Source: Minisyncoccia bacterium
Lineage (GTDB): Bacteria > Patescibacteriota > Minisyncoccia > Phycocordibacterales > GWA1-40-21
Direction of reading: 5' to 3'
Assembly (NCBI GenBank): GCA_049287185.1
Contig: JBAQFI010000012.1
Coordinates: 54,659-118,658, forward strand
DNA: 64,000 nucleotides
Of the stretch, positions 34,921 to 55,976 are shown in pieces. The notes under the pieces were generated by a model. That model did not search any database, had not been told where the DNA came from, and saw only the letters and a list, made by a program, of their open reading frames with translations. The position numbers and the translations under genes were made by a program. The first letter of the stretch is position 1. Every line of letters begins with the position of its first letter.

Positions 34921-34925
34921 TAAAA

Positions 34926-36104
34926 ATGAAAAAATATTTAATCGTCAATACTGGTAGTGCCTCAAAAAAATACGCTTTATATGAAGGGGACAAGAGACTT
35001 TTCTTTTCGCATTTTGAGACTGAGAACGGCGGGTATATTCTAACCAATTTTTACGGAGATTCGATTGAGAAAAAAAATATTACTCAAGATAGTTTTAATG
35101 ATTCTCTAAATTTTGTTTTAGGCGAACTCGTTAATCATAAAAGAATATCTGACTATAGTGACGTTATGGCTATCGGAGTCAGAGTGGTTGCTCCCGGAAA
35201 TTATTTTCTTGAACATAGATTGCTTGATGAAAAATATTTATCAGAACTTCAAATCGCCAAGGAAAAAGCGCCACTTCATTTGACCTCAATTTTAATTGAA
35301 ATTGAAAAGATTAAAAAGATGTTTCCAAGTACTGTGCTTTACGGTATCTCGGATAGTGCTTTTTATAAGGATTTACCAACTGTGGCAAAAACATACGGTA
35401 TTTCTACCGATATAGCGGAGAAGTATGGCATTTATCGTTTTGGTTATCATGGTCTCTCACTGCAATCACTAGTATCAAAGATACCAAAAGTTTTTGGACG
35501 TTTACCTTCAAAAACAGTGGTTTGCCACATTGGTGGTGGTGTTAGTTTGGTGGCGATTAAAGATGGTCAAGTGGTTGATACTTCAATGGGTTTTACACCT
35601 CTCGAGGGACTACTAATGGCTACACGAGTTGGAGATATTGATTCCGGAGCTATTCTTTATTTGCAAGAAAAAACTGGTATGAGTATTTTGGAAGTTCGTA
35701 AATATTTAAATTCGGAGTGCGGTCTGCTTGGAGTGAGTGAGAAGAGCGCAGATGTTCGTGATCTTATTGATCTGGAAAAGCAGGGAGACAAATTGGCTAC
35801 TTTAGCTTTAAATTTATATAGTTATAAAATTAAAAAATACATTGGTGCTTATACTGCAGCTATGAATGGTCTAAATGGGATTGTTTTCTCCGGCACGATT
35901 GGAGAAAGATCCTTTATTATGCGTGAGAGAATTCTCAGAGATTTGGAATGTTTTGGTGTTAAATTAAATCTAGATAAGAATGACCTCGCTATTGCGGAGG
36001 ACAAAGTGATTAGTAGTTGGCTTAGCAAAGTAAAGGTGATGGTTGTCCCAACAGATGAGATGAAACAACTAGCAGTAGAAACGTTAAATCTTGCAAAAGA
36101 TTAG
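34926..36104 (+). CDS. ackA: acetate kinase
   Basis: LIVNTGSASKKYALY, acetate/propionate kinase length; 5 nt after xfp stop. Confidence 0.85.
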   Translation: MKKYLIVNTGSASKKYALYEGDKRLFFSHFETENGGYILTNFYGDSIEKKNITQDSFNDSLNFVLGELVNHKRISDYSDVMAIGVRVVAPGNYFLEHRLLDEKYLSELQIAKEKAPLHLTSILIEIEKIKKMFPSTVLYGISDSAFYKDLPTVAKTYGISTDIAEKYGIYRFGYHGLSLQSLVSKIPKVFGRLPSKTVVCHIGGGVSLVAIKDGQVVDTSMGFTPLEGLLMATRVGDIDSGAILYLQEKTGMSILEVRKYLNSECGLLGVSEKSADVRDLIDLEKQGDKLATLALNLYSYKIKKYIGAYTAAMNGLNGIVFSGTIGERSFIMRERILRDLECFGVKLNLDKNDLAIAEDKVISSWLSKVKVMVVPTDEMKQLAVETLNLAKD

Positions 36105-42424: not shown

Positions 42425-42490
42425 CCTTTTGTACCACCAGGGCATTTCCATTTTTTACCACGGAGTACCGTGAAGAAAATTAGGTCAACT
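42425..42490. repeat. RS-like repeat variant
   Basis: accaccagggcatttccattttttaccacggagtaccgtgaagaaaattaggtc. Confidence 0.6.
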
Positions 42491-42529
42491 TTGAATTTTG
42501 AGTTAGTTATATGTTATAATATTTGTAAC

Positions 42530-43303
42530 ATGTTTGATTTTCTTTTTGGCAAAAATAGTAAAAATACTTCATCCGCTGACTGCCAAGGTAAAATGTCCGA
42601 AAAGGAACTATTTGATTTTATTTCTGTTTCCGCTCATCAATTAAAAACTCCACTCTCATCAATAAAATGGTCTTTGGAAACTCTGCAAAACGGTTCAATA
42701 AAGAATGATGAAGAAAAAAATGATTTATACAAAAAAATGTATGAAATTTCCGTTCATGCTATTCACCTTGTGGATGAAATGCTAAGTGCGTATAAATTGG
42801 AAACAAAAAGTATCGCCTTCGATTTTGAACCAGGTGATAATATTGCTGATATTTTGAATCAAGAAATTGAGGAAGTTCGCCCATCAGCTGAAAAGAAAAA
42901 TATTACTCTTGATGTAAAATTATACGGCGGTGTACCAACGGGTTTATATATTGATCATTCTAAAATCCAGGACGTTTTTCAGAATCTTTTGGAAAATGCT
43001 ATTCGCTATACCAAGGATAGTGGAAAGATATACATATCATACATTTTTGATAATAAAACTGCGGAATTTATGATATCGGACACAGGTATCGGTATTCCAG
43101 CCGAAAGTCAATCCAAAATTTTTACCAAGTTCTTCCGAGCACCAGGTAGTGAAAAAATGGAGAACAGAGGTAATGGCTTGGGACTATTTATTTCCAAAAG
43201 TATTGTTGAGGCACATGGTGGCAAAATTTGGTTTGAAAGTGAAGCCGGAAAGGGAACTACTTTTTTTGTAAGTTTGCCAATGGGTGAAAAGAAAAATAAA
43301 TAA
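42530..43303 (+). CDS. cytoplasmic sensor histidine kinase (HisKA + HATPase_c)
   Basis: H-box ISVSAHQLKTPLSSI; NLLENAIRYT, DTGIGIP, GNGLGLFISKSIVEAHGG. Start uncertain (42530 or 42593); TATAAT 9 nt before 42530. Confidence 0.75.
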   Translation: MFDFLFGKNSKNTSSADCQGKMSEKELFDFISVSAHQLKTPLSSIKWSLETLQNGSIKNDEEKNDLYKKMYEISVHAIHLVDEMLSAYKLETKSIAFDFEPGDNIADILNQEIEEVRPSAEKKNITLDVKLYGGVPTGLYIDHSKIQDVFQNLLENAIRYTKDSGKIYISYIFDNKTAEFMISDTGIGIPAESQSKIFTKFFRAPGSEKMENRGNGLGLFISKSIVEAHGGKIWFESEAGKGTTFFVSLPMGEKKNK

Positions 43304-43309
43304 TTATTT

Positions 43310-44278
43310 ATGCAAAAACTAAGAGTGGGAATAGTTAGAGGAGGGCCGAGTAGTGAATACGATGTCTCACTAAAGACTGGACAAACTGTTCTGCGTCATT
43401 TACCTGAAAAATATATTGCTTCTGATATTCTAATTGATAAGGCTGGAGATTGGTATAAAGATGGCTGGAAAACACCACCAGGTGAAATATTTCGCAATGT
43501 TGATGTAGTTTTTAACGCTCTACACGGAGAATATGGCGAGGATGGTAAAATACAGCAGTTAATGGATAGTTTTGGTGTCCCTTATACCGGTTCAAATGCT
43601 CTGGCTTCTGCTATTGGTATGAATAAGTCACAATCTAAAAATATTTTTAAACAAAACAAAATCAAGACACCCGCTCATCTTTTATTTAGAAAACATGAAG
43701 GCACAGCTCAAGAATTAGCCAAGTCAATATTTCGTCTACTGCCAATTCCTCTAATTGTTAAACCTGTTGACCGGGGTTCATCTGTTGGAGTATCTAAGGT
43801 AATGAGTTTCGCTGATTTAGCCCCAGCTCTAGAAAATGCCTTTTCTTTTTCTGATACTATTTTAGTTGAAGAATATATTAAAGGTAGGGAAGCCACCTGC
43901 GGAGTGATTGATAATTATCGCGATCAGAGTGTCTATCCATTATTACCAATTGAAATTATTCCGTCCAAAAATTCTTTTTTTGATTATAAAGCAAAATATG
44001 GTGGTGAAACTCAAGAAGTTTGTCCTGGTAACTTTTCTAAGGAAGAAAAGAAGGTTTTACAGGATTTAGCGGTGGATGTTCATAAAGCTCTTGGTTTACG
44101 ACACTATTCCAGAACTGATTTTATTATTTCTCCAAAACGGGGAATCTATGTTTTAGAAGTAAATACTTTACCGGGTCTCACCGAACATTCCTTAATGCCA
44201 AAATCCTTGACCGCGATTGGTTCAAATTTGTCTCATTTTATTGACCATATTATTCAATTAGCAGTTAATAAAAGGTAA
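43310..44278 (+). CDS. ddl: D-alanine--D-alanine ligase
   Basis: VGIVRGGPSSEYDVSLKTG, HGEYGEDGKIQQLMD, EVNTLPGLTEHSLMPK. Confidence 0.85.
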   Translation: MQKLRVGIVRGGPSSEYDVSLKTGQTVLRHLPEKYIASDILIDKAGDWYKDGWKTPPGEIFRNVDVVFNALHGEYGEDGKIQQLMDSFGVPYTGSNALASAIGMNKSQSKNIFKQNKIKTPAHLLFRKHEGTAQELAKSIFRLLPIPLIVKPVDRGSSVGVSKVMSFADLAPALENAFSFSDTILVEEYIKGREATCGVIDNYRDQSVYPLLPIEIIPSKNSFFDYKAKYGGETQEVCPGNFSKEEKKVLQDLAVDVHKALGLRHYSRTDFIISPKRGIYVLEVNTLPGLTEHSLMPKSLTAIGSNLSHFIDHIIQLAVNKR

Positions 44279-44441: not shown

Positions 44442-47201
44442 ATGAAAAAAATCTTTTCGTATGTTTGCTTATTGGCGATAGCGTTTTTGTTTGTGGGAGT
44501 TTCTATTAATACTGCTCAAGCCGTAGCTCCTGGTGATGTTTTAATTAATGAGTTTAGACTTGATGGAACTCAATGGATTGAGCTTTTTAATACTACTGAT
44601 AGTGACATTAATTTAGCTTCTTCAACCTGGGAGCTCGTATCAACTGTATCTGGACCAGGATCAGCTACTTCAACATTGTCAGCTGGTTTAATCCCTGCCA
44701 ACGGATTATTAACTGTTGCTGCTAGTGGTCTTCCAACTACGGCACCGACTATGCTAGCCCTAAATGAAGGTGCGGTGAATATTTATACCATGTCCTATGG
44801 TACTCCAGCCTTCGGTGCCGAACCTCATTTTACTGGAAATTTACCTTCTGGTCAGTCTGCCGTTTTAACTGGTGGAACAACTTGGAGTGCCACTTCTACC
44901 GCTAATATAACTCGCGGCTGGTATAATGAATCACCCGCACCAACTATCACTAGTATTGTTTCTGATATAAATACTTCTAATGTGGCTACCAACATGAGTA
45001 CCTCCAGTGATAACACTGCGGTTACTGGTTTGTATTTTGAAAAAAGAACCACACTTGGTAACCCAGCTACAGCACTGGGTAGATTAACTTTTGCAGGACC
45101 CTTAAATCTTACAAACGCTTCAACCACTGCGCTTCTTCAAGACCTTGGTACAAAGATGGAGGCTGCTGCCGGTAGTTTGTCATTTGATGCTCGTACCGCC
45201 ACTGATCTAAGAAACGCTGGTGCTTCAATATCCATGTACAATGTAGAAAACATTGGATACGATATTGATGATTTAGACATTTCTGACCTAACCGTTGTGG
45301 ATGATTTAGGTGTAGAAATCGCAACTTCTTCAATTGATTACCCAAGTTTTTCTAGTATATCAACTAGTACTGATAACAGTGGAACATTTACATTTACCAC
45401 CAGTCACTTTACTGGGTTTGAATTTGATCCAATTGTAACTGAAGTAACTCCAGTTACAACACCAACTGCTTCAACTAGTCCATATTATACTTTTAGTTCA
45501 AATGTGGTCGGTACAGTTATCTATGGTGGAGATTGTGCTACTACCTCTGCTTCAACTACAGTCGGAAATAATATTGTTCAATTTGGACCATTGGCAACAT
45601 TTACCACTTATTCAAATTGTACCGTTAAAGTGATTGATGGAGCTGGAGCATCTACTACTTTAGCTGTTACACCATTTACAATTTCTACTCTTTCAGCAAA
45701 TCCAGCTGCCGTTGATTTGGGCACTGCTGGCAATTATGTTGTTTTAGCAAAATCAGGAATTACTACTACTGCCGGTAGCTCAATTACAGGAGATATAGGA
45801 GCTAGTCCGATTAGTGCGACTGCTATAACAGGATTTGATTTATCAATGCATTCTTCAAATACATATTCAACCTCAGCTCTCATAACTGGAAAAGTTTACG
45901 CTTCCAATTACACTTCTCCGACTCCGGATATTTTAACAACTGCCATAGGTGATATGGAAACTGCCTATACCGATGGAGCCGGAAGATCAGCTGATGTCAC
46001 AGAATTGGGGGCTGGAAACATCGGTGGAATGACTCTCACTCGTGGTGTTTATAACTGGACTACTGGAGTAACAATCCCTACCGACCTCACTCTTTCTGGT
46101 AGTGCTACAGATGTCTGGATTTTTCAAATCGCTGGAGATCTTGATATCAGTAGTGCCACCGATATTATTTTGAGTGGAGGAGCATTAGCAAAAAATATTT
46201 ATTGGGTAGTTGCTGGTCAGACATTCATCAATACCACAGCTGTATTCAATGGTAATATTATTTGTACTAATAGTTTAGGCCTTCATCTTTACACTGGTGC
46301 TACTTTAAACGGTAGAGCTTTATCAACATTCAATGTTACATTACAATCTAACATCGTTACTTTTCCGGCTGAAAGTTCTGCCAAAGATATCACCGCCTTT
46401 ACTGTTCCTGGTCAAGATGGTTCAACTACAATTAGTATAGCTAGTAGTACTGTGAATTTAACTGTTCCATTTGGAACAAATGTAACTGCTCTTGTACCAA
46501 CAATTACGATTACCGGTGCATCAGTTAGCCCGGCTTCTGGTATTGCCCACAACTTTACAGCTTCTAGTACCTATACCGTCACAGCTGATGATGCTTCAAC
46601 CCACGATTATACTGTTAAAGTTACAATTACTTCAGGTTTGACTGATGCTACAATCACTTCCGCAACTTACACAATAAACAATACTGATTCAACAATCACT
46701 AGTATTGCCAGAAACACATCGATGGCGTCCTTTTTAGCAGCTATAGCTACTTCAACTGGACAGAATTGGAATACCTCTGGTCTTTCAAGTACAATAAACA
46801 CAGGAGATACCTTAGTAGTTACTGCTCAAGACGGAGTAACAACAAAGACATATACCTTAACTGTTCGTACTTACAGTGGTAGTTCATCACATACTAGTAC
46901 TGAAACCCCTGCAACAACCACTACTACAACAACTACACCTTCCACCACAACTACAACTACCACTACATCTACTACCCACAGATTTAATACTGATCTAACT
47001 TTGGGTTCAACTGGAAACGATGTAGTAGAATTACAAAAAGCTTTGGTTGCAAAAGGACTACTTGTTATGCCAGCCGGAGTGTCAATGGGTTATTTTGGAA
47101 ATTTGACTAGATTAGCTCTAATTAATTATCAATTAGAAAATGGTATTACTCCAGCTGTCGGTTACTTTGGTCCATTAACTAGAACTAGTCTAAATAAATA
47201 A
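44442..47201 (+). CDS. secreted surface protein: signal peptide, lamin-tail domain, Thr/Ser-rich regions, ice-binding-like DUF3494 domain, poly-Thr linker, C-terminal peptidoglycan-binding domain
   Basis: SP MKKIFSYVCLLAIAFLFVGVSINTAQA; LTD PGDVLINEFRLDGTQWIELFNTTDSDINL; DUF3494 AVDLGTAGNYVVLAKSGITTTAGSSITGDIGASPISATAITGF...VWIFQIAGDL...NIYWVVAGQT; PGBD GNDVVELQKALVAKGLL...GYFGNLTRLAL. Confidence 0.7.
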   Translation: MKKIFSYVCLLAIAFLFVGVSINTAQAVAPGDVLINEFRLDGTQWIELFNTTDSDINLASSTWELVSTVSGPGSATSTLSAGLIPANGLLTVAASGLPTTAPTMLALNEGAVNIYTMSYGTPAFGAEPHFTGNLPSGQSAVLTGGTTWSATSTANITRGWYNESPAPTITSIVSDINTSNVATNMSTSSDNTAVTGLYFEKRTTLGNPATALGRLTFAGPLNLTNASTTALLQDLGTKMEAAAGSLSFDARTATDLRNAGASISMYNVENIGYDIDDLDISDLTVVDDLGVEIATSSIDYPSFSSISTSTDNSGTFTFTTSHFTGFEFDPIVTEVTPVTTPTASTSPYYTFSSNVVGTVIYGGDCATTSASTTVGNNIVQFGPLATFTTYSNCTVKVIDGAGASTTLAVTPFTISTLSANPAAVDLGTAGNYVVLAKSGITTTAGSSITGDIGASPISATAITGFDLSMHSSNTYSTSALITGKVYASNYTSPTPDILTTAIGDMETAYTDGAGRSADVTELGAGNIGGMTLTRGVYNWTTGVTIPTDLTLSGSATDVWIFQIAGDLDISSATDIILSGGALAKNIYWVVAGQTFINTTAVFNGNIICTNSLGLHLYTGATLNGRALSTFNVTLQSNIVTFPAESSAKDITAFTVPGQDGSTTISIASSTVNLTVPFGTNVTALVPTITITGASVSPASGIAHNFTASSTYTVTADDASTHDYTVKVTITSGLTDATITSATYTINNTDSTITSIARNTSMASFLAAIATSTGQNWNTSGLSSTINTGDTLVVTAQDGVTTKTYTLTVRTYSGSSSHTSTETPATTTTTTTTPSTTTTTTTTSTTHRFNTDLTLGSTGNDVVELQKALVAKGLLVMPAGVSMGYFGNLTRLALINYQLENGITPAVGYFGPLTRTSLNK

Positions 47202-47207
47202 TTAAAA

Positions 47208-47275
47208 AGTCATTCGCCAAAAAAGGCGAATGAAGTTAAAACAAAAACCATCTCAGTAAGGTGGTTTTTGTTTGC
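47208..47275 (+). terminator. tandem hairpins, second with U-tract
   Basis: gtcattcgcc-aaaaaa-ggcgaatga then aaaaacca-tctcagtaagg-tggtttttgtttg; a further hairpin aagaagagg-ggattgg-cctcttctt (47297-47321) serves the minus-strand gene. Confidence 0.6.
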
Positions 47276-47334
47276 TTAAAATTTGCATTAAAAAAGAAGA
47301 GGGGATTGGCCTCTTCTTAAAATCAAGTTTTCCT

Positions 47335-48450
47335 TTAGTTTGTTAACACCGGAAGGGGATCATATGGCACGTGCCCAAATGTGATTTCCTTCCGTGGCAA
47401 GCAGATGACCGCAAAACAGCGATCAGTATTTGCGTCTCCAGGGTTAATAGTTGTGACCAGCTGTCCTTCCACCAGTAGTGCTTCGCGAGTAAACCCGCAA
47501 AGTACAAACTGGGTTTCTGGATGCTTTCGGCGAATTTGCATGGCCATAGTGTCCATACCAACTTCACTGACAGTCATGAACTTCAGACCCAGATCAAGTT
47601 GAACGAAGAACCTATAGTTGTTTATGACAACCGTTGCTCCCTCATCCAAATCCTTTTCGGCAATAACCTTCCAGTTGCCTGGAATTGCCGATGACTTCGA
47701 AAGTTTATCATGATCCGCTTTCTGGTCTGCTCGAATAGCATAATAAACTGTGGAAAAATGGCTGAGTTCCTTTCGACCTATGTCTTCCAATGACAGATTA
47801 CCACAGTGAATTATATGCTGGACACCACGCTTATCAAATTCCTGGGCTAATTTCAGCCAAAAATTCTTGTCTTGATGGCTAACATCTAGACTGTCGGAAA
47901 TTACTCCAACACTAAATGTTGGTCTGTCATCTGGCATGGGTAGAACTCGGCTGAAAACCACTTGCTCGATGGCTGTATCAATTACAGCAAACTCATAACC
48001 CCAACCCAGTGCATCTTGCACAGCTCCAGGATTAATGAAACTGACTAAGTGACCTTGTTTGTAAGTTTGAAAATGCAGATGACCACCGAAGACCATCCGC
48101 AAACCATCAAACTTATGACGCAGGTCAGTTAGTATCTCATTAAATTTTTCTTCAGTCGCCTTGAGAAATTCAAGGTGTTTTTTATGTCCGATGTAAACTA
48201 CCGTTCCATCTGAAAGAGTATGAACTCTTTTTTCTGGAAAGGTAAATTTCCATTTGACAGGACAGCCATCATTAAATGCTGGATCACTGAGATTTTGACC
48301 ATCCACTAGGGCGCAAACCACAGGCAAGTCGCCAAATAGTTCGCTGGAGACATGTTTTGATTCAATGTCCCCACAGTGGACAATCATTTCTACCTCACGT
48401 TTTTTAAACTCCTTAATAATGTGAGGAATGGCATTTTTTTTTATCACCAT
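47335..48450 (-). CDS. tandem-domain metallophosphoesterase (YfcE/MJ0936-type)
   Basis: Two MPP motif sets: MIVHCGDIES and HIIHCGNLSLEDI, plus GHLH/GHKH His motifs. Confidence 0.65.
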   Translation of the reverse strand: MVIKKNAIPHIIKEFKKREVEMIVHCGDIESKHVSSELFGDLPVVCALVDGQNLSDPAFNDGCPVKWKFTFPEKRVHTLSDGTVVYIGHKKHLEFLKATEEKFNEILTDLRHKFDGLRMVFGGHLHFQTYKQGHLVSFINPGAVQDALGWGYEFAVIDTAIEQVVFSRVLPMPDDRPTFSVGVISDSLDVSHQDKNFWLKLAQEFDKRGVQHIIHCGNLSLEDIGRKELSHFSTVYYAIRADQKADHDKLSKSSAIPGNWKVIAEKDLDEGATVVINNYRFFVQLDLGLKFMTVSEVGMDTMAMQIRRKHPETQFVLCGFTREALLVEGQLVTTINPGDANTDRCFAVICLPRKEITFGHVPYDPLPVLTN

Positions 48451-48686
48451 GTGTGTCTGACATTACTCCAATAATCATAACTACCTCCCTTAGCCATATT
48501 TCAGGCCATTTTGTTAACTAATTTGTGACAAATAGCTTGGTACTCAAAAGAGTACGTTTCTAATAAAATACTATACCTCTACTTAACAAAAGTAAAGTAG
48601 AGTTTTGTCAAGTACTAATAGGAGTATCATACGCAATCATTTCTTTACCATTAGCTTATAGTATAAAAAATAATTATGTTTTTGAT

Positions 48687-49637
48687 CTAGTCAAAAATAT
48701 TTACCAAATATTTGTCTATCTCACGTTGTTCCATGTCAGAAAAATTAATTCCCAAGTCGTGTAGTTCTGTAGCCAACTCAACACCAACAAATCTCCAGTG
48801 CCACGGTTCATATTGGTAATAAATATTGCCCTTAGGATAGGAAAGAACGAAACCATATCTATAGGCATTTTCTGTTAGCCATTTAAAGGCCGGAGTCGTT
48901 TCAAACTTAATTACTAATTTAGTATCTACACTATCAGTGGCAATATCAACAGTGGTACCAAGTTGATGTTCGGAATAGCCCTGGTCTGCCGAAAATCTGT
49001 TTGCTCCAGTACCATAAGAAACAAGGTAAGCATCTTTTAGAGATGACTGTTCACCAAAAGAGCGATAGGCTGAAGCTATTTTTAACGTTATGTCATCATT
49101 GCTAGCTCGCCTAACCATTCTTTCTAAAAATGATAGAGCTGAAGCGTGAAATTTTAATTCTTTATTTGGATCTGATAAATATCTTTCATCAATTGTGTCC
49201 AGACTCATTGGAACATAGTTGTCACTCAAAAAATATACTTTAGAATATTTTTGTAACAATTCTTTGTCTGTTTTGGAGAGTTTTTCTAGAGTACCGACGG
49301 TACCGGAAATGTCCTCAAGGTTTGACTGAATATCTTCATTTTGTGATTGTTGCTCTTGTAAGCGTTGGGCCAGTTCTGCACCTGTGAGAGTTGTAGTGGC
49401 AAGGGCAGCCTCTAAGATTTCTAGTTTTTGAGACAATTTTTCAGTGGTGGCGGTCACATTATTATCAAGAGCCTCAATATCATTTGAGGTTTTTTGAGCC
49501 AGAAAATAGACTATGAAACCAAGAATGAAGATATTAATAATGGCAATAACTGCTAGAGTATGTGGTAGTCTCGCTTCGTCAAAATGTTTATTGATGAATT
49601 CTCTCATATTCGTGAAGTATAGCAAAAAACTATCCAA
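48687..49637 (-). CDS. membrane-anchored D-alanyl-D-alanine carboxypeptidase (VanY/peptidase M15B) with coiled-coil stalk
   Basis: ASAYRSFGEQ, SEHQLGTTVDI, EPWHWRFVG; N-terminal TM IAIINIFILGFIVYFLA. Confidence 0.8.
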   Translation of the reverse strand: MDSFLLYFTNMREFINKHFDEARLPHTLAVIAIINIFILGFIVYFLAQKTSNDIEALDNNVTATTEKLSQKLEILEAALATTTLTGAELAQRLQEQQSQNEDIQSNLEDISGTVGTLEKLSKTDKELLQKYSKVYFLSDNYVPMSLDTIDERYLSDPNKELKFHASALSFLERMVRRASNDDITLKIASAYRSFGEQSSLKDAYLVSYGTGANRFSADQGYSEHQLGTTVDIATDSVDTKLVIKFETTPAFKWLTENAYRYGFVLSYPKGNIYYQYEPWHWRFVGVELATELHDLGINFSDMEQREIDKYLVNIFD

Positions 49638-49705
49638 AATTCAAAGCAAATCAAATAATATGCATATAGACTTTGAATTACGAAATATCAATTTTATCTC
49701 TACTA

Positions 49706-49923
49706 TCATTCTCGCGCACCACCAGGATATTTCCATTTTCTCCACTCGCTCTCCCTTCTGTCATTCTCTCTTATTTTCCGTCATTGCGAGAAAGTATTCT
49801 GACGAAGCAATCCAGGATTAATTTTTTCCCTCTGTCATTCCCGCATAGGCGGGAATCCAGTTTTTTGGTTTTAAGACTGATTAAGATTCCTGGGTTCCCG
49901 TTGTCACGGGAATGACAGAAAGA
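49706..49923. repeat. large repeat cluster: RS-like fragment, variant palindrome, composite MITE-like element
   Basis: caccaccaggatatttccattttc; ccgtcattgcgagaaagtattctgacgaagcaatccagg; ctgtcattcccgcataggcgggaatccag, spacer ttttttggttttaagactgattaagatt, inverted cctgggttcccgttgtcacgggaatgacagaaag. Confidence 0.8.
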
Positions 49924-49951
49924 AGGTATTTCGTAATTTACAGATATAGAC

Positions 49952-50836
49952 CTATTTATTAGCAAAATAACTAAATAAAGCTTTAATACCAGCCAGATTC
50001 TTCTCCCACTCTATCGTTTCGTGGGTCTTGAGTTCCACAGTTATAGCCGGAATGTTTATTGAAGCCAACCAACCCTCAGCGTCACCAGTGACCGGGTAAC
50101 TATTAAAGGTATCAATGGCTGGATAACCCGCGGCCTTGGCGAAGATATTCATAATATTTGAAGTTTCAAAGAGAATACCGGATTCACATTCTGAAGCGTA
50201 AACGGCATTTGATTGACTGTGCCAAAAAATTACAGCTTTAGGTTTGCTTTGTAAAACAAAATCTCTGATCGCCTTGGCTTCTGGTTCAGAAAAGGCTTCT
50301 GTTCCAGCACTGACAATTTTTGCTCTCCAGGTACTGGTTGCTTGCCATTTACAATTAAAGTTTCGATTTAAATCAACATTATTAGCATTAAAGCGACCAA
50401 TAGATTCATCTGTACCAGTAGGAATGTCAGTTAATTCAAAGCGACCCTCTTTACCGATTACTTTATAAACTCCATCTGGATTAGCAGAAGGAATTATTGT
50501 AACAGTTAATTTCTCCGGAATAACGCTTGGATTTGCTTTTAAATAGTCCAAAAATTTATAAGCTAAAAGTACACTGTTCCATTCGTAACCACCGTGAATA
50601 CCGCCAACGAAAGCAATATGAGTTGGACCATTTCCAAAAGTATAAGCCTCGATTGATCTATTTTCGACAGATTTTCCAATAGTTGTTTGACTAAAAACTG
50701 GGCTGTTTGTCTCCGTGACAATCGGTTCTATTTGTTTTGACTTATAATTTAGAAAAATAACAAAGGCAACTACAACAATAATCACAGTTACGATTGTAAC
50801 TGTGATTATTGTTTGTTTAGTAAAAAACAATTTCAT
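49952..50836 (-). CDS. membrane-anchored M14-family zinc carboxypeptidase
   Basis: FVGGIHGGYEWNS, NANNVDLNRNF (M14 NRN motif); N-terminal TM. Confidence 0.65.
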   Translation of the reverse strand: MKLFFTKQTIITVTIVTVIIVVVAFVIFLNYKSKQIEPIVTETNSPVFSQTTIGKSVENRSIEAYTFGNGPTHIAFVGGIHGGYEWNSVLLAYKFLDYLKANPSVIPEKLTVTIIPSANPDGVYKVIGKEGRFELTDIPTGTDESIGRFNANNVDLNRNFNCKWQATSTWRAKIVSAGTEAFSEPEAKAIRDFVLQSKPKAVIFWHSQSNAVYASECESGILFETSNIMNIFAKAAGYPAIDTFNSYPVTGDAEGWLASINIPAITVELKTHETIEWEKNLAGIKALFSYFANK

Positions 50837-51759
50837 TATTTTGCGTAATTGTTAAGGACAGCCTTAATACCTGCCAAGTTCTTTGTCCATTCAGTATCTT
50901 TATGATTGGTGAGTAGAACGCTAATAGCTGGAACATTTTGTTTAGCTAACCAGTTAACCATGTCTCCAGTGATAGCGTAGTAGTCAAATTCTTCATAGGC
51001 AGGGTAACCAGAGGCTTTAGCAAAGAGGTTAGTTAATTTTGCGGTTTCTGTTGACACTCCATTGTGACAACTGGAAGAATAAACACCACCAGCGGCACTG
51101 TACCAAGCCACCACTGCTTTTGGTCCTTTCATATCAACATAAGTTTTTATGGCTAGACTTTCTGGCTCAGAAAAGGCGGCTGATCCACCACTGACTGTTC
51201 GGCTTTGCCATTTACCGGTTGTTTGCCAGTCACAATCAAAGTTACGATTTAGGTCAACAGTATTAGCATTAAAGCGTCCAGGAATAGTTGCAGTTTCGGA
51301 AGTTGGGATGTCAGACATACTAAAACGAGAAGAAGTGCCGACTACTTTGTTTAAACCATCAGGATTCAAAACTGGAATCACAGTAACCTTAACATTTGAC
51401 GGGATTACATTTGGATTAGCTTTTAAATAATCCATTGCTTCGAAAGCAACGAGTGATGTATTCCATTCATAACCACCGTGAATACCGCCAACGAATAAAA
51501 TCTCATCTGCACCAGTACCATAGTGATATGCGGTGATTGGCAGACCATTAACTGAGGTACCTATAATAGTTTCGTCTTTATTGATAGGTTTTGAACTGGT
51601 AGCAATATAGGGATTGTTGATATTTTTTTGGATATCAGTCGCTGTATTTGTATTTTCAGGAATAGCAGAATTTTTTGGAGATGAGCTAGTAAAATAATAA
51701 ACACCAACACCTAAAAGAACGATAACTACGACTAAGATAATTATATTATTTCTTTTCAT
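50836..51759 (-). CDS. membrane-anchored M14-family zinc carboxypeptidase, paralog
   Basis: FVGGIHGGYEWNT, NANTVDLNRNF; abuts the previous gene. Confidence 0.65.
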   Translation of the reverse strand: MKRNNIIILVVVIVLLGVGVYYFTSSSPKNSAIPENTNTATDIQKNINNPYIATSSKPINKDETIIGTSVNGLPITAYHYGTGADEILFVGGIHGGYEWNTSLVAFEAMDYLKANPNVIPSNVKVTVIPVLNPDGLNKVVGTSSRFSMSDIPTSETATIPGRFNANTVDLNRNFDCDWQTTGKWQSRTVSGGSAAFSEPESLAIKTYVDMKGPKAVVAWYSAAGGVYSSSCHNGVSTETAKLTNLFAKASGYPAYEEFDYYAITGDMVNWLAKQNVPAISVLLTNHKDTEWTKNLAGIKAVLNNYAK

Positions 51760-52050
51760 AATGCATCTATTATACCATAGATAATATTTTGTTTACATTA
51801 TTCTGTTCCAGGTGTAAAATGGTAAGTAATAGATTCCCGAGAGGAATAGACGCGCCTGTTCGATATTTCTAATAATACAATTAAAAATATAAATTGAGTC
51901 TGGTAAAATCAGAATTTTTGTTTTTACGTGCTCAAAAAAATGACGAGTGTTCTGCCTGAGATCATTTTGCAGATTTAATCAATGTTTTAGATTATTAGAA
52001 AACCTTAATAAAGGTCTGAACATTAATAATTTTAATAATAATTTATATAT

Positions 52051-54354
52051 ATGATGAAAAATAAGTTGATGGTCGTTATCGTTCTAGTAGCTTTTTTTAT
52101 TAGTATTGCTGGTTCAGTCTTTGCCGCAACCTTCATCGATCTTAATACGGCTGATGACTTTGCTGTTTTAGCTGGCTCCACAATAACCAACTCTGGTTCC
52201 TCCGTGATTACTGGTGATTTAGGATTAAGTCCAGGTCTTTCTGTTACTGGTTTTCCACCTGGTACTGTCAGTGGAACACAACATATAGCTGATGCAGCCG
52301 CTGTACAGGCAAAGGTGGATCTCACCTCAGCCTATAATGACGCAGCAGGACAGACACCGGTTTCTACTGTACCGACTGAACTTGGTGGAACTACAAAAAA
52401 TGCCGGTATTTATGATTCTGCAGATGGTACATTTGAAATTACTGGAACATTAACACTTGATGCTCAAGGAGATCCAAATGCTGTTTTTATCTTTAAGACA
52501 GCCACCACTCTTAATACAGCTGGCGCAAGTAGTATTGTACTTGCTAATGATGCTCAGGCCTGTAATGTTTTTTGGCAGGTAGGTAGTTCTGCCACTCTCG
52601 GTGCCAATTCAACCTTTAAAGGAAATATTTTAGCTTTAACTTCAGTTACATTAACAACTGGTGCTGATGTGGAAGGTAGAGTCTTAGCTAGAAATGGTGC
52701 TGTGACATTGGATACTAATGATATAGCCATTGCTACTTGTGCAGCCTCACCTCAACTTACTGTCACTAAAACAGTTGATAATACTGGTGGTGGAACCAAA
52801 CTAATTTCCGACTTTCCACTCTTCATCGATGGTAGCAGTGTGACTTCAGCAGTAGCTAGTACAACCACCATTGGTTTACACACAGTTACTGAAACTACCG
52901 ATCCAAATTACACCTCAACTATTGGTGGTGATTGTGCTGCCAACGGTACTATTACATTGGCAATGGGTGAGGAAAAGACTTGTTCCATTACTAATACTTA
53001 TGTTCCTGCTTCACCAGGTACACTTCATATAATTAAACAAGTTACAAATAATAACGGTGGAACAGCTATTGCCAGTGACTTCACCTTAAATGTTACAGGA
53101 ACCAATGTTTCCTCCAGTTCATTTTCTGGTTCTGCAGCCGGAGTGGATATCACTTTGGACGCTGGTTCATATACTGTCACTGAACCAATCATTCCAACAG
53201 GTTATTTACAATCAGGTTCTGGTACTTGTTCTGGAACAATAGCTTCCGGTGAAACTATTACCTGTACTATTACTAATGACGATGTCGCCCCACAACTGAT
53301 AGTGAACAAAATTGTTATTAATGACAACGGCCGAACCAAACTAATTTCCGACTTTCCACTATTTATCGACGGCAGCAGTGTTGTTTCTGGAGTCGCTAGT
53401 ACTACAACTATCGGAAGTCATACTGTCACTGAAACTACTGATTCAAATTATACTTCAGCCTTCGGTGGCGATTGTGCAGCTGATGGTACGGTTAGTTTAG
53501 CCTTAGGTGAAGTGAAGACATGTACTGTTACTAATGATGATGTGACCCCACCTTCTTCTGGTGGTGGTTCCCGTCATTATGCACCACCATTAATAGATAT
53601 AATAAAAATACCAAGTCCCTTAGCTCTACCTAAAGGTCCTGGCTCTGTAACATATACCTATACACTCAGTAATATTGGAACAGTTCCTGTGTCAGATATC
53701 ACTATGGTTGATGATTCCTGTAGTCCGGTATCCTTAATTTCTGGGGATACAAATGCGGATAATATGTTAGATCTTGATGAAGCCTGGATTTATCGCTGTT
53801 CAAAAATTATATCAAAAACCAGCACAAACATTGTCACAGCAACTGGTTGGTCCCATGGTGTAAGTGCGACAGATATAGCCAATGCCACAGTCGTAGTGGG
53901 AGTTTCGGTAGTGCCACCATTAATTCACGTCACAAAAATTCCGAACCCTCTTACTTTACCAGCTGAGGGAGGAATAGTTACCTATACAAATAAGGTTACT
54001 AATCCTGGAACAGTATCATTAAGCAACGTTCGTCTCACCGATGATAAATGTAGTCCAGTAAAATATATTTCAGGTGATTTAAACAATAATTCAAAGCTAG
54101 AAACTACAGAAACCTGGATTTATACTTGCCAGTCTAAACTCACTAAAACCACTGTAAATACTGTTACCGCGAGTGGTGATGCAAATAGTTTAACAGCAAA
54201 GGATTTTGCTATTGCCACAGTTATTGTAGCGGCACCAAAATTACCAAATACGGGAATTGGTTCTGACGAGGGAAGTCTTCTCTGGTATATTATTGCATTA
54301 GCTGGAATATTTTTGGTTCTACTATATTTTTATTTTATTCGAAGAAAAAAATAG
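52051..54354 (+). CDS. LPXTG-anchored surface protein: signal peptide, ice-binding-like DUF3494 domain, repeated DUF11/Ig-like domains, sortase signal
   Basis: SP ...SVFA-ATF; FAVLAGSTITNSGSSVITGDLGLSPG...AVFIFKTATTL...NVFWQVGSSATLGANSTFKGNILALTSVTL; repeated TVDNTGGGTKLISDFPLFIDGSSV modules; C-terminal LPNTG + TM + RRKK. Confidence 0.8.
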   Translation: MMKNKLMVVIVLVAFFISIAGSVFAATFIDLNTADDFAVLAGSTITNSGSSVITGDLGLSPGLSVTGFPPGTVSGTQHIADAAAVQAKVDLTSAYNDAAGQTPVSTVPTELGGTTKNAGIYDSADGTFEITGTLTLDAQGDPNAVFIFKTATTLNTAGASSIVLANDAQACNVFWQVGSSATLGANSTFKGNILALTSVTLTTGADVEGRVLARNGAVTLDTNDIAIATCAASPQLTVTKTVDNTGGGTKLISDFPLFIDGSSVTSAVASTTTIGLHTVTETTDPNYTSTIGGDCAANGTITLAMGEEKTCSITNTYVPASPGTLHIIKQVTNNNGGTAIASDFTLNVTGTNVSSSSFSGSAAGVDITLDAGSYTVTEPIIPTGYLQSGSGTCSGTIASGETITCTITNDDVAPQLIVNKIVINDNGRTKLISDFPLFIDGSSVVSGVASTTTIGSHTVTETTDSNYTSAFGGDCAADGTVSLALGEVKTCTVTNDDVTPPSSGGGSRHYAPPLIDIIKIPSPLALPKGPGSVTYTYTLSNIGTVPVSDITMVDDSCSPVSLISGDTNADNMLDLDEAWIYRCSKIISKTSTNIVTATGWSHGVSATDIANATVVVGVSVVPPLIHVTKIPNPLTLPAEGGIVTYTNKVTNPGTVSLSNVRLTDDKCSPVKYISGDLNNNSKLETTETWIYTCQSKLTKTTVNTVTASGDANSLTAKDFAIATVIVAAPKLPNTGIGSDEGSLLWYIIALAGIFLVLLYFYFIRRKK

Positions 54355-54415
54355 TTTAGTCTAAATATTTACCTAATTGGCTTATAAGTACCAGTCGTAA
54401 ACTTATCTGGTACTT

Positions 54416-55051
54416 ATGTCTTTTAGTCTAGAAAATATGCATCAAAAAATATTATCAAAAAAATTATTGCAGCCATTTGTTATTCTTTTTGGGATGATCA
54501 TTTTCGTAATTCTACTTCTTTATATTATTCCACAAATATCAATTGAAAATGGTGACAGGAATGTCCTTAATGGTAATAATATAGTTGAAGAAATTGATAA
54601 TAGTTTGGCATTACCTATTCGACTCAAAATTCCAAGTTTAGGTATCGACGCTCCCGTGGAGTCACTTGGCCTCACAACAGATGGATCAATGGACGTCCCA
54701 AAGAGTCCAGACAATGTTGGTTGGTTTGAACTCGGACCATATCCAGGAGAAATTGGAAGTGCTGTCATTGCCGGGCACTATGGTTGGAAGGATAATCTAC
54801 CTGCGGTGTTTGATAATTTATCTAAACTAAAGAAGACAGACAAAATATATGTTGAGGATAAAGAGGGAATAATCACTACTTTTGTCGTCCGCGAGATTCG
54901 TTCATTTGGTGAGAACGATGAGACATTAGATGTATTTAATTCTACAGATGGAAAAGCACACCTTAATCTAATCACTTGTGAAGGTATTTGGAATGCGTCA
55001 AATAAAAGTTATTCCAAAAGACTTATAGTGTTTACTGATAGGGAATTATAG
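54416..55051 (+). CDS. sortase (transpeptidase)
   Basis: N-terminal TM; LKIPSLGIDAPVE; catalytic His in AGHYGW, Cys in LITCEG, Arg downstream; immediately after its LPNTG substrate. Confidence 0.8.
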   Translation: MSFSLENMHQKILSKKLLQPFVILFGMIIFVILLLYIIPQISIENGDRNVLNGNNIVEEIDNSLALPIRLKIPSLGIDAPVESLGLTTDGSMDVPKSPDNVGWFELGPYPGEIGSAVIAGHYGWKDNLPAVFDNLSKLKKTDKIYVEDKEGIITTFVVREIRSFGENDETLDVFNSTDGKAHLNLITCEGIWNASNKSYSKRLIVFTDREL

Positions 55052-55062
55052 ATAAAACTTAA

Positions 55063-55092
55063 AAAATCTCTCCTAAGGAGAGATTTTTTAAT
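55063..55092 (+). terminator. rho-independent terminator
   Basis: aaaatctctcctaagg-agagattttttaat. Confidence 0.8.
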
Positions 55093-55110: not shown

Positions 55111-55301
55111 GTGGACCGCACCGGACACGCTTTGCATTCTCCCTCGACTAAAACCTCGTCGCCACTCGGTTTTGTCTGGTCACGCCCTCACATAATTTTC
55201 TACTAAAAATCATTGGCTCCGGGCTTCGAGTCCGGACACGAGTGATGCCTATCACTCGCTTGCAGTCCATACAAAAAAATCGCTAATCGCGATTTTGTTT
55301 G
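55111..55301 (-). other. conserved ~190-nt tRNA-Ala(GGC) 3' trailer element ending in a direct repeat of the tRNA 3' end (att-like); possible ncRNA or integration remnant
   Basis: Minus-strand reading: terminator-like hairpin aaatcgcgattagcgattttttt, hairpin gagtgat-aggc-atcactc, conserved blocks ggactcgaa, cggagccaat, agtaga, atgtgag, ccagac, gacga, agtcgagggaga, then aagcgtgtccggtgcggtccac repeating tRNA positions 59-73. Confidence 0.5.
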
Positions 55302-55374
55302 TGGACCGCACCGGACTCGAACCGGTCACCTCTTCCATGCCATGGAAACGCTCTACCAGATGAGCTAGCGGCCC
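55302..55374 (-). tRNA. tRNA-Ala (anticodon GGC), no encoded CCA
   Basis: Reverse complement GGGCCGC-UA-GCUC-AUCUGGUA-GAGC-G-UUUCC-AUGGCAU-GGAAG-AGGUG-ACCGG-UUCGAGU-CCGGU-GCGGUCC-A; G3-U70 Ala identity pair. Confidence 0.85.
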
Positions 55375-55719: not shown

Positions 55720-55792
55720 GGGCCCTTAGCTCATCTGGTAGAGCACCTGCTTTGCAAGCAGGGGGTGGCAGGTTCGAGTCCTGTAGGGTCCA
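55720..55792 (+). tRNA. tRNA-Ala (anticodon UGC), no encoded CCA
   Basis: GGGCCCU-UA-GCUC-AUCUGGUA-GAGC-A-CCUGC-UUUGCAA-GCAGG-GGGUG-GCAGG-UUCGAGU-CCUGU-AGGGUCC-A; G3-U70. Confidence 0.85.
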
Positions 55793-55976
55793 CAAATTTA
55801 AAACACCGAAAGGTGTTTTTAATTTGTGGACCCTAAGTAAGTGCTGGGCAGCACTTACGTCAGGACTCGAACAGCGGAGCCAATTTTTGTCAGTAGACAA
55901 AAATGTGAGCTGGTGCCCAGACTAAATTTTGTGACGACAAAATTTAAGTCGAGGGAGAGACTCCTGTAGGGTCCAC
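55793..55976 (+). other. conserved ~185-nt tRNA-Ala(UGC) 3' trailer element, homologous to 55111-55301
   Basis: Terminator hairpin aaaacacc-gaaa-ggtgttttt nested in a 23-bp stem pairing the tRNA 3' end (agggtccacaaattt...aatttgtggaccct); hairpin aagtgct-gggc-agcactt; same conserved blocks; ends cctgtagggtccac copying the tRNA 3' end. Confidence 0.5.

Follow-up and report, generated by a model that had tools for sequence, protein, structure and literature searches.

The window analysed here, a 64,000-nucleotide (nt) stretch of the genome of a Minisyncoccia bacterium (Patescibacteria), contains at 44442-55051 a region of seven genes. They code for a wall-associated secreted protein (protein 1), a tandem YfcE-type metallophosphoesterase, a VanY/M15B-type carboxypeptidase, two paralogous M14 carboxypeptidases (M14b and M14a), an LPNTG fibrillar-adhesin-like protein (protein 6) and a sortase. 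We read the region as a lineage-specific juxtaposition of three independently inherited envelope units, namely protein 6 with the sortase, the M14 pair, loosely joined by the VanY protein, and protein 1, together with one unrelated cytoplasmic gene, and give this reading a probability of roughly 0.65.

Gene content and organisation of the region

Domains were assigned by Pfam gathering scores and subfamilies by the curated cutoffs of NCBIfam, and signal peptides and membrane anchors were judged by hydropathy and by reading of the sequence. An initial annotation of this DNA had proposed the seven open reading frames (ORFs), the coordinates of which all proved exact, and the VanY, two M14, tandem Metallophos_2 and sortase domains that it named are all recovered by Pfam. 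It had also placed the bacterium in a small-genome, host-associated lineage, which is right at the level of the taxon. Protein 1, protein 6 and a giant ORF at the end of the window have signal-peptide-like N-termini; the VanY protein, the sortase and, as had been proposed, both M14 paralogues carry hydrophobic N-terminal membrane anchors. All products of the region except the phosphoesterase appear to be extracytoplasmic. All of these parts belong to known families and are already so named in public databases.

Seven of the nine consecutive genes between 43310 and 55051 are envelope-related, and the other ORFs screened in the window are housekeeping genes; this local concentration of envelope genes is real. 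The coherent locus that had been proposed on its account is contradicted by synteny across relatives, which splits the 10.6 kilobases (kb) into separate units, and the adhesion and envelope-remodelling roles assigned to the region are predictions. Domain content, catalytic-residue patterns, gene linkage and the conservation of that linkage are observed directly for the units.

Two samples of loci carry this result. In the first, M14a was searched against one genome per species, and the best 80 of 563 relatives, each taken with up to 10 kb on either side, were queried by tblastn with all proteins encoded at 37-64 kb. M14a and M14b were matched at all 80 loci, the VanY protein at 21, the sortase at three, protein 1 at two, and the phosphoesterase and Ddl, the D-Ala-D-Ala ligase encoded directly upstream of protein 1, at one each; protein 6 was matched at none of the 80. 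The second sample comprised 80 metagenome loci centred on the sortase, each reaching up to 6 kb in both directions, and within these no M14, VanY, phosphoesterase or Ddl gene was found. The peptidase set is likewise absent from all five contexts of protein 6 homologues, and the closest full-architecture homologue of protein 1 (P0003; 55% identity, 88% coverage) is encoded in an unrelated context, between polysaccharide-synthesis genes and rplJ/rplL. Linkage between the units being absent or nearly so in both the M14-centred and the sortase-centred samples, and the protein 1 homologue lying elsewhere, a single module is not supported; the gene arrangement at 44-55 kb is not a conserved unit.

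The genes of the region are distributed over the two strands and make up four or more transcription units. Terminator-like hairpins adjoin protein 1 and follow the sortase, and a further one belongs to the phosphoesterase itself (Table 1). A consensus promoter scan returned 52 sites against 38.5 +/- 6.9 in shuffled sequence, barely above expectation, and was therefore not used to define promoters.

Table 1. Position of the genes, domains and other features discussed in the text (numbering of the window; aa, amino acids)
Feature	Position	Strand	Details
Protein 1	44442-47201	+	919 aa, wall-associated secreted protein
Protein 1, signal peptide	44442-44522	+	by hydropathy
Protein 1, lamin-tail (LTD) Ig-like domain	44526-44894	+	Pfam residues 29-96, 28.8 bits, below 34.3
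Protein 1, alpha/beta region and two beta-sandwiches	44895-45686	+	no Pfam match
Protein 1, DUF3494	45741-46361	+	residues 434-640, 218.3 bits vs 28.7
Protein 1, DUF5018-like Ig region	46374-46751	+	sub-threshold in Pfam
Protein 1, Thr-rich linker	46881-46979	+	threonine run
Protein 1, PG_binding_1 (PF01471)	47010-47192	+	residues 857-917, 29.1 bits vs 23
Terminator-like hairpin	47210-47233		adjoins protein 1
Terminator-like hairpin	47294-47318		phosphoesterase's own
Tandem YfcE-type metallophosphoesterase	47335-48450	-	371 aa, two Metallophos_2 stretches (Pfam)
VanY/M15B-type carboxypeptidase	48687-49637	-	316 aa, Pfam VanY 117.5 bits
M14b	49952-50836	-	294 aa, Pfam M14 86.6 bits
M14b, Glu268	50033-50035	-	catalytic Glu
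M14b, His206	50219-50221	-	zinc ligand
Inverted repeat within M14b	50774-50813		18-bp stem, 4-nt loop
M14a	50836-51759	-	307 aa, Pfam M14 62.6 bits
M14a, Leu282	50914-50916	-	at the catalytic Glu position
M14a, Tyr220	51100-51102	-	at a zinc-ligand position
Protein 6	52051-54354	+	767 aa, LPNTG fibrillar-adhesin-like protein
Protein 6, signal peptide	52051-52125	+	hydrophobic N-terminus, then VFA/AT
Protein 6, DUF3494 beta-solenoid head	52165-52725	+	residues 39-225, Pfam Ice_binding 209.3 bits vs 28.7
Protein 6, three SpaA_2 CnaB-type domains	52738-53550	+	Pfam
Protein 6, two CLIPPER_2/DUF7507 CnaA-type domains	53587-54228	+	Pfam 35 bits, cutoff 27
Protein 6, sorting signal	54241-54351	+	LPNTG-IGSDEGSLLWYIIALAGIFLVLLYFYFI-RRKK
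Sortase	54416-55051	+	211 aa, Pfam Sortase 86.1 bits vs cutoff 26.6
Terminator hairpin	55059-55091		after the sortase
Histidine kinase and Ddl	42470-44278	+	outside the region
Ddl, housekeeping D-Ala-D-Ala ligase	43310-44278	+	outside the region (Pfam)
tRNA-Ala pair, divergent	55301-55374; 55720-55793	-; +	anticodons GGC and TGC
Giant ORF	60779-64000	+	>1073 aa, runs off the window end
Phosphoketolase (XFP), then acetate kinase	32554-36104	+	two-gene energy module
Protein with weak matrixin (M10) match	22423-23454		

Paired M14 carboxypeptidases

M14a and M14b share 52% identity and are encoded in tandem on one strand, in the order a to b, at 77 of the 80 M14-centred loci; the other three end at a contig edge, so that the arrangement is present at all 77 loci at which it can be evaluated. 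In the window, the stop codon of M14a and the start codon of M14b overlap by 1 nt (UAAUG). The same overlap is found at 43 of the 77 loci and a gap of at most 10 nt at 63, the ATG nearest the M14a stop having been taken at each locus, a choice that favours short distances.

The zinc ligands of M14 peptidases are His69, Glu72 and His196, and the catalytic residue is Glu270 (bovine carboxypeptidase A, CPA, numbering). When these positions are fixed by alignment to carboxypeptidase B (CPB), the catalytic set of M14b is complete (His81, Glu85, His206 and Glu268), and in M14a the position of the third zinc ligand is occupied by Tyr220 and the catalytic Glu position by Leu282, with the equivalents of His69, Asn144 and Arg145 kept. 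The same division runs through the relatives. The b-type sequences have His69, Glu72, His196 and Glu270 in 74 of 74 cases each and retain Asn144 and Arg145. Among the 80 a-type sequences, His69 is invariant, Glu72 is lost in 18, position 196 is Tyr in 78, Phe in one and Asn in one, position 270 is Leu in all, Arg145 is kept in all and Asn144 in 75. An independent set of 120 a-type cluster representatives gives the same picture, with Tyr (117) or Phe (3) at the His196 position and Leu (116) or Ile (4) at the Glu270 position. M14a is thus predicted to be a membrane-anchored pseudoenzyme, catalytically dead.

Homologues of M14a fall into more than 7119 protein clusters, besides the 563 relatives among the species-representative genomes. 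The a- and b-types are reciprocally monophyletic, no sequence having a member of the other type as its nearest neighbour, from which it follows that duplication and inactivation took place before any of the sampled genomes diverged. The a-type sequences have a mean identity of 63%, and this comparison indicates that M14a is kept under strong constraint since its inactivation. Most likely it is a non-catalytic partner of M14b, serving in substrate recognition or regulation: M14b would be the active carboxypeptidase of a translationally coupled, membrane-anchored pair, and M14a, which keeps the carboxylate-binding residues, would partner it without catalysis.

Within the literature that can be searched, a pair of M14 proteins, one dead and one live, that is universally conserved and coupled in translation appears to be new. 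Its logic resembles that of the degenerate LytM factors that control amidases. Such EnvC/NlpD-type factors are catalytically dead wall-hydrolase paralogues that regulate live ones. In contrast to them, M14a is a paralogue of the enzyme itself, is encoded directly upstream of it with a 1-nt overlap, and like it is anchored in the membrane.

Together with the M15B VanY/LdcB-type enzyme, the pair would shorten the stem peptides in the wall of the bacterium itself. Murein-peptide enzymes are known in the M14 family, among them Csd4/Pgp1, and both paralogues show sub-threshold similarity to MpaA, the murein tripeptide amidase (NCBIfam). With MpaA-type enzymes the pair of the window has in common the M14 fold, an apparently extracytoplasmic location and, in part of the genomes, linkage to an M15B carboxypeptidase. 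It differs from them in the structural neighbours of M14b, an AlphaFold2 (AF2) model of which (predicted local distance difference test, pLDDT, 81) has its best Foldseek matches in CPA4, CPB and carboxypeptidase T (CPT), with a template modelling (TM) score of about 0.62. A structural refinement of its subfamily yielded generic CPA, CPB, TAFI and CPT, and no murein-specific enzyme stood out. The zinc motif differs as well. Both paralogues and all relatives examined contain the sequence IHGGYEWN, which gives the zinc motif the form H-x-x-x-E; CPB, to which they align, has HxxE, shorter by one residue.

Alternatively, the M14 pair and the VanY protein could act on the wall of a bacterial host, harvesting D-Ala and amino acids from its peptidoglycan for an auxotrophic epibiont. 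All three proteins do appear extracytoplasmic, Patescibacteria are described as broadly auxotrophic and host-dependent, and extracellular enzymes are highly expressed by Paceibacteria during parasitism (PMC10936435). Nevertheless, membrane anchors rather than cleavable signals hold the enzymes at their own membrane, beneath their own wall, and the pair is near-universal and highly conserved, unlike host-range factors. To our knowledge, archaea have no murein. The cultured members of the class parasitise archaea (PMC10936435). Digestion of a host wall is therefore unlikely, and trimming of the bacterium's own stem peptides is the preferred function of the set.

Inside M14b, 23-62 nt past the start codon, the sequence coding for the membrane anchor contains an inverted repeat (TIITVTIVTVIIV) with a perfect stem of 18 bp and a loop of 4 nt; the corresponding RNA has a folding energy of -31.1 kcal/mol (z = -5.97), with none of 200 shuffles as good. 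As a conserved regulatory element the hairpin was ruled out, a stem of at least 10 bp being present at only 3 of 79 loci (16 bp at L072).

VanY-type carboxypeptidase and the neighbouring ligase

In the VanY protein, a coiled-coil-like spacer joins an N-terminal membrane anchor to a catalytic domain, which scores well above the Pfam cutoff of 25 bits. The metal motifs of the M15B subfamily are SxHxxGxAxD and ExxH; in its translation the protein has SEHQLGTTVD, which starts at residue 222, and EPWH, which starts at residue 277. These features, shared with the VanY/LdcB enzymes, suggest a D,D- or L,D-carboxypeptidase of M15B type. In contrast to those enzymes, it falls far below the NCBIfam cutoffs for VanY, LdcB and VanXY and lies outside any van cluster. 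In the 21 of 80 genomes in which it is encoded within 10 kb of the M14 pair, it mostly adjoins the pair, on either side.

Ddl passes the NCBIfam cutoffs of the D-Ala-D-Ala ligase subfamilies (286.9 bits vs 243; 278.8 vs 245.65) and reaches 142-219 bits against the Van ligase models, the cutoffs of which are 495-775. It would supply the D-Ala-D-Ala terminus that would be the substrate of the VanY-type enzyme. Directly upstream of its gene, a histidine kinase core of 277 aa (HisKA and HATPase_c) is encoded, in which neither a membrane nor a sensor domain is evident; its best NCBIfam similarities, to PnpS, WalK and PhoR, are all far below the cutoffs. A van resistance cluster made up of the kinase, Ddl and the VanY protein was considered and ruled out by the housekeeping type of Ddl and the low scores of the VanY protein; VanH, VanX and VanR or any other response regulator were not found among the neighbours screened.

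Fibrillar-adhesin-like protein 6

Protein 6 has the architecture of a surface fibre, with a signal peptide, a DUF3494 head, five stalk domains and a C-terminal sorting signal, the only one of LPXTG type within the 64-kb window. The predicted LPNTG signal is borne out, since the motif is followed by a hydrophobic stretch and RRKK. The stalk had been described as repeated DUF11-like modules; repeated Ig-type modules are indeed present, but DUF11 itself stays below its threshold (19.3 bits, cutoff 24.6), the domains being three SpaA_2 and two CLIPPER_2/DUF7507. According to Monzon et al. 2021 (PMC8286594), a fibrillar-adhesin-like protein has at least one listed adhesive domain and one or more stalk domains; that work lists PF11999 as adhesive and built PF19403 (SpaA_2) as a stalk domain. 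Protein 6, with PF11999, PF19403 and also PF24346, falls within this definition.

SpaA_2, CLIPPER/DUF11 and CLIPPER_2/DUF7507 are shown or predicted to be intramolecular-isopeptide stalk domains of fibrillar adhesins (PMC12617251). In protein 6, the three SpaA_2 domains contain the Lys-Glu-Asn triads K240/E281/N315, K329/E378/N409 and K420/E461/N495, and the two CLIPPER_2 domains the Lys-Asp-Asn triads K519/D555/N593 and K629/D664/N703. Across 38 homologues the triads are kept in 36-38 wherever the domain is present, and each of the five domains has a Cys pair that is invariant or nearly so. This pattern of triads and cysteines agrees with Table 1 of PMC12617251 for SpaA_2, DUF11 and DUF7507. 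The isopeptide stalks described there (structure 9IFR) belong to the same domain families and have the same triads and disulfide pairs, but Patescibacteria have no occurrence in that survey, and the bonds of protein 6 are predicted from its sequence. The stalk domains are probably locked by isopeptide bonds and disulfides: after export via Sec, the stalk would fold oxidatively and form intramolecular Lys-Asn bonds by self-catalysis.

Conservation climbs from the head to the wall, the mean pairwise column identity in the same 38 homologues being 0.43 in the head, 0.47-0.64 in the SpaA_2 domains and 0.71-0.74 in the CLIPPER_2 domains. The head is thus the least conserved folded part, a pattern expected of a diversifying adhesin tip, and it would be projected outward as the variable tip of a fibrillar adhesin.

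More than 5694 homologues of protein 6 were found at E<=1e-5, and nearly all of the named ones belong to Patescibacteria (Uhr-, Magasanik-, Buchanan-, Staskawicz- and Gracilibacteria, Paceibacterota and Minisyncoccales). A C-terminal LPxT[GASN] motif is present in 96 of the 120 best homologues, in 58 of them as LPNTG, and the remaining ones have mostly near variants such as LPDAG, FPNTG and LPNSG; a PG_binding_1-like tail replaces the motif in four of the 120. Two homologues have a sortase domain in the same ORF, a fusion that could be an artefact of gene calling. Interchangeable C-termini of proteins with DUF3494 and a stalk are seen in the homologues P0123 and P0150, and P0139, P0149, P0165 and P0168.

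The sortase-anchored MSCRAMM/Cna-type adhesins (PMC8286594) resemble protein 6 in the signal peptide, the distal head, the stalk of CnaB/CnaA-type domains, the isopeptide triads and the LPXTG tail, and the collagen adhesion protein 6fwv is matched weakly in the PDB. The heads of Cna-type adhesins bind collagen or fibrinogen, whereas that of protein 6 is a DUF3494 beta-solenoid and occurs in a Patescibacterium. A further difference is that the partner sortase is class-F-like and is encoded directly downstream, as a dedicated partner.

Wall-associated protein 1 and the phosphoesterase

Protein 1 combines an N-terminal LTD-like domain, a central DUF3494 domain and a C-terminal PG_binding_1 domain, the last of which confirms what the initial annotation had proposed. 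For its lamin-tail claim the fold speaks and the Pfam threshold does not. In an AF2 model of residues 25-432 (pLDDT 80.6), the N-terminal beta-sandwich matches the lamin Ig domains 3jt0, 1ifr and 7yvd (Foldseek probability 1.0, target TM score 0.5-0.66, E 4.5e-4 to 4e-3); the LTD assignment is thus tentative, supported by the modelled fold, not by the curated sequence threshold. Residues 101-432 gave nothing usable in Pfam at E<=1, and the alpha/beta region (about residues 169-290) no match.

The N-terminal 400 or so residues (25-432; 44514-45737) are conserved in the homologues P0006-P0009, P0015 and P0019, which are without DUF3494 and have Beta_helix or aBig_2 in its place, and always a C-terminal PG_binding_1. 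This sharing of the N-terminus with other middle domains suggests a wall-bound scaffold in which several inserts can replace one another, DUF3494 among them. Once secreted, protein 1 would be held non-covalently on the wall by PG_binding_1 after the Thr-rich spacer, displaying the LTD-like Ig domain and another DUF3494, which is distantly related to that of protein 6. The wall in question may be the cell's own or a host's.

Cultured relatives (Minisyncoccaceae/Yanofskyibacteriaceae) highly express extracellular proteins with PG-binding and Ig-like domains, for which host attachment has been proposed (PMC10936435). Protein 1 comes from the same bacterial class and resembles them in its domain combination; DUF3494 and sortase have no occurrence in that paper.

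The phosphoesterase, between protein 1 and the VanY gene, has a sub-threshold match to yfcE in NCBIfam and no hydrophobic N-terminus. It is linked to one of the 80 M14 loci and to none of the 80 sortase loci, and is treated as a putative cytoplasmic bystander that belongs to no surface unit.

DUF3494 domains and their possible ligands

The DUF3494 domain proposed for both large proteins is confirmed by Ice_binding (PF11999) matches with E values of 1.2e-64 in protein 1 and 6.7e-62 in protein 6. The two are 33% identical and match different subgroups of solved structures, which rules out a recent duplication of one gene into the other. In a PDB sequence search, the head of protein 6 matches the deposited antifreeze protein 6EIO (E 1e-54) and also the ice-binding proteins 5UYT and 7BWX. 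We take 6EIO to be EfcIBP and 5UYT to be the Shewanella frigidimarina ice adhesin SfIBP_1. The DUF3494 domain of protein 1 matches the solved 'DUF3494 domain-containing proteins' 9LI0/9LHN (E 3e-79) and also the FfIBP/LeIBP/TisAFP group. Literature searches for the PDB codes 9LI0, 9LHN, 9LHS and 9LHR found only unrelated materials-science papers.

Nevertheless, we infer that the head of protein 6 would bind an ordered surface, that of a partner cell or of a substrate, and not ice. If both proteins were genuinely ice-binding, a cold-habitat bacterium would have a wall-anchored ice adhesin and a wall-bound recrystallisation inhibitor. Besides the strong structure matches of both heads, this view has in its favour the NCBI name of both proteins, 'ice-binding family protein', and the existence of ice adhesins, that of Shewanella among them, that combine DUF3494 with tandem beta-sandwiches as protein 6 does (Vance 2018, as cited in PMC11645318). 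It is quite unlikely for several reasons. The proteins score 210 and 95 bits against the NCBIfam ice-binding-protein equivalog, the cutoff of which is 400, and belong to a very large Patescibacterial family of thousands of members, the record names of which point to aquifer and groundwater sources, as with the RIFOXY/RIFCSP names and the Hainich contigs L132 and L155, both of which have the head upstream of the sortase. These sites are presumably unfrozen. Across environments, DUF3494 is treated as both ice-binding and substrate-binding (PMC12337378). Finally, the head is the most variable domain of protein 6, which fits diverse ligands better than a single one, ice. Most characterised ice-binding proteins are single-domain, secreted proteins of cold habitats, whereas those of the window would be wall-anchored, via the sortase or PG_binding_1.

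Sortase and its linkage to protein 6

The sortase starts 61 nt past the stop codon of protein 6 and has an N-terminal membrane anchor at about residues 17-40 and the catalytic residues His121, Cys188 and Arg202, a triad that is invariant in all 81 sequences compared. Its best class by a wide margin is class F (NF033748), at 123.9 bits; this falls short of the cutoff of 166, and the enzyme is therefore called class-F-like. It has in common with class F sortases the N-terminal anchor, the His/Cys/Arg triad and an LPXTG-type substrate, and differs from them as a divergent relative that is tied to one cargo, unlike a housekeeping sortase.

Fifty of the sortase-centred loci extend at least 2.5 kb upstream and could be evaluated for an upstream partner within 3.5 kb on the same strand. 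A DUF3494 head is present at 45 of them and any domain of protein 6 at 48. Viewed from the other gene, a sortase lies directly downstream of the protein 6 homologue in four of five contexts, including an Uhrbacteria genome, a 440-kb contig and a Magasanikbacteria-type contig; the context of the Gracilibacteria homologue has no downstream sortase. As had been proposed, the sortase is thus supported as the cognate partner of protein 6 by an adjoining gene order kept in homologues and by the two sortase fusions, and the genes form a two-gene cassette at 52051-55051. The sortase would cut LPNTG between Thr and Gly and link protein 6 covalently to the cell's own peptidoglycan.

Within the searchable literature, this near-obligate pairing of a sortase clade with a DUF3494-headed isopeptide-stalk cargo appears to be new. 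No paper joining 'DUF3494' and 'sortase' was found, and among those with 'LPXTG' and 'Patescibacteria' none concerns such a protein, as judged from titles and abstracts. In the available part of Meheust et al. 2019 (PMC6744442), a sortase family is described as enriched in the candidate phyla radiation, its cargo unnamed.

In some genomes, DUF3494 genes tend to cluster. The Magasanikbacteria-type locus L165 (ENA ERZ27254852 contig k141_732591, 445-9306) has its sortase surrounded by three separate Ice_binding genes, for products of 311, 693 and 436 aa, and two DUF3494 domains are found at 8 of 35 long sortase loci. L165 also encodes a MarR-like regulator, a T4SS_pilin-like protein and an S11 carboxypeptidase that bears PG_binding_1. 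T4SS_pilin-like genes lie a few kb from the adhesin-sortase cassette both in L165 (7559-7975) and in L003 (16052-18598). A DsbA/thioredoxin-type gene is encoded near the cassette of L003; the Cys pairs of the stalk would need disulfide formation outside the cytoplasm. An MdbA-like oxidoreductase is also reported as enriched in the candidate phyla radiation by Meheust et al. 2019 (PMC6744442).

Proposed functions of the units

Several observations tell against the interpretation of three independent units with the functions proposed. The clustering of seven envelope genes among nine could mean weak selection for co-location in this lineage, and the sample may miss such co-location, no relative in it being closer than about 75% identity. 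The nearest structures of M14b in Foldseek are generic digestive-type M14A enzymes, not murein-specific ones, so that wall-peptide trimming rests on topology, VanY linkage and the sub-threshold MpaA match; the HGGYE motif, moreover, makes the zinc site of even M14b atypical, as judged from the alignment. The head of protein 6 is about 49% identical to the antifreeze protein 6EIO. Bond formation, anchoring, ligands, heterodimerisation and substrates are what we infer from the sequences.

The opposite view, that the whole 44.4-55.1 kb is one co-selected envelope-remodelling and adhesion module in which the peptidases open the wall for installing the DUF3494 proteins, is already largely refuted by synteny. 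It draws on the run of envelope genes from Ddl to the sortase in an otherwise housekeeping window, on the Magasanikbacteria locus, where several Ice_binding genes and a sortase occur together with an S11 carboxypeptidase that bears a PG_binding domain, and on the sortase loci with two DUF3494 domains. Given the near or complete lack of cross-linkage in both 80-locus samples, the unrelated context of the closest protein 1 homologue, the opposite strands with several terminator-like hairpins between the genes, and a phosphoesterase that appears to be cytoplasmic, it is very unlikely.

It is most improbable that protein 6 is a pilin polymerised head-to-tail by the neighbouring sortase into a SpaA-type pilus: the pilin-type CnaB (SpaA_2) domains with isopeptide triads, the substrate gene with its own sortase, which recalls Gram-positive pilus clusters, and the best PDB sequence match of the sortase, the class C enzyme 8t28 (E 7e-6), are outweighed by the NCBIfam scores (class F 123.9 bits vs class C 31.7, class C cutoff 160), by a sortase sequence with an N-terminal anchor only and no DP[WFY] lid, by the lack of a YPK(N) pilin motif in the sequence of protein 6, by the presence of one substrate gene only, in a neighbourhood that contains neither minor pilins nor a second, housekeeping sortase, and by a large beta-solenoid head on each subunit, which would be atypical of a shaft pilin.

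Both novelties, the pairing of sortase and cargo and the M14 pair, are, as far as the sequences tell, variations on known themes. A broader picture can be offered only tentatively. In Patescibacteria, DUF3494 might be no antifreeze device but the outer end of the main sortase cargo of the phylum, an adhesin anchored covalently in the wall and locked by isopeptide bonds, with a rapidly diverging head that recognises host-cell surfaces and is combined with interchangeable anchors (LPXTG, PG_binding_1 or a sortase fusion); separately, Paceibacteria-type genomes might universally code for an obligate heterodimer in which a dead M14 protein is joined to a live one, a previously undescribed control of stem-peptide trimming with minimal wall machinery.

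For host attachment by ultra-small Patescibacteria, studies to date have dealt mainly with type IV pili as candidates. The DUF3494-headed adhesin beside the sortase of this clade is a concrete, testable attachment candidate, and it calls for caution before the annotation 'ice-binding family protein' in these genomes is read as cold adaptation. The dead and live M14 proteins, to which databases give the same name, 'M14 family metallopeptidase', are candidates for a core element in the wall maturation of this class. For genome scanning, the lesson is that envelope genes can cluster strikingly without forming a functional module; this cluster was split by synteny.

Other genes in the window

The giant ORF begins, as had been annotated, at 60779 and runs off the end of the window; its supposed beta-helix nature was not confirmed, no Pfam family and no PDB sequence match being found at E<=1. 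With a signal-peptide-like start (...LAQA/A) and a Thr/Gly/Asn/Ser-rich sequence, its product may be an uncharacterised surface protein. Just past the sortase terminator, two divergent tRNA-Ala genes divide the envelope genes from an unrelated group, those for an HI0933-like flavoprotein, TspO, a hemerythrin and a PAS/zinc-ribbon protein. Elsewhere in the window, phosphoketolase and acetate kinase genes form a compact energy module, unrelated to the region, and a further protein unrelated to it has a weak matrixin match.

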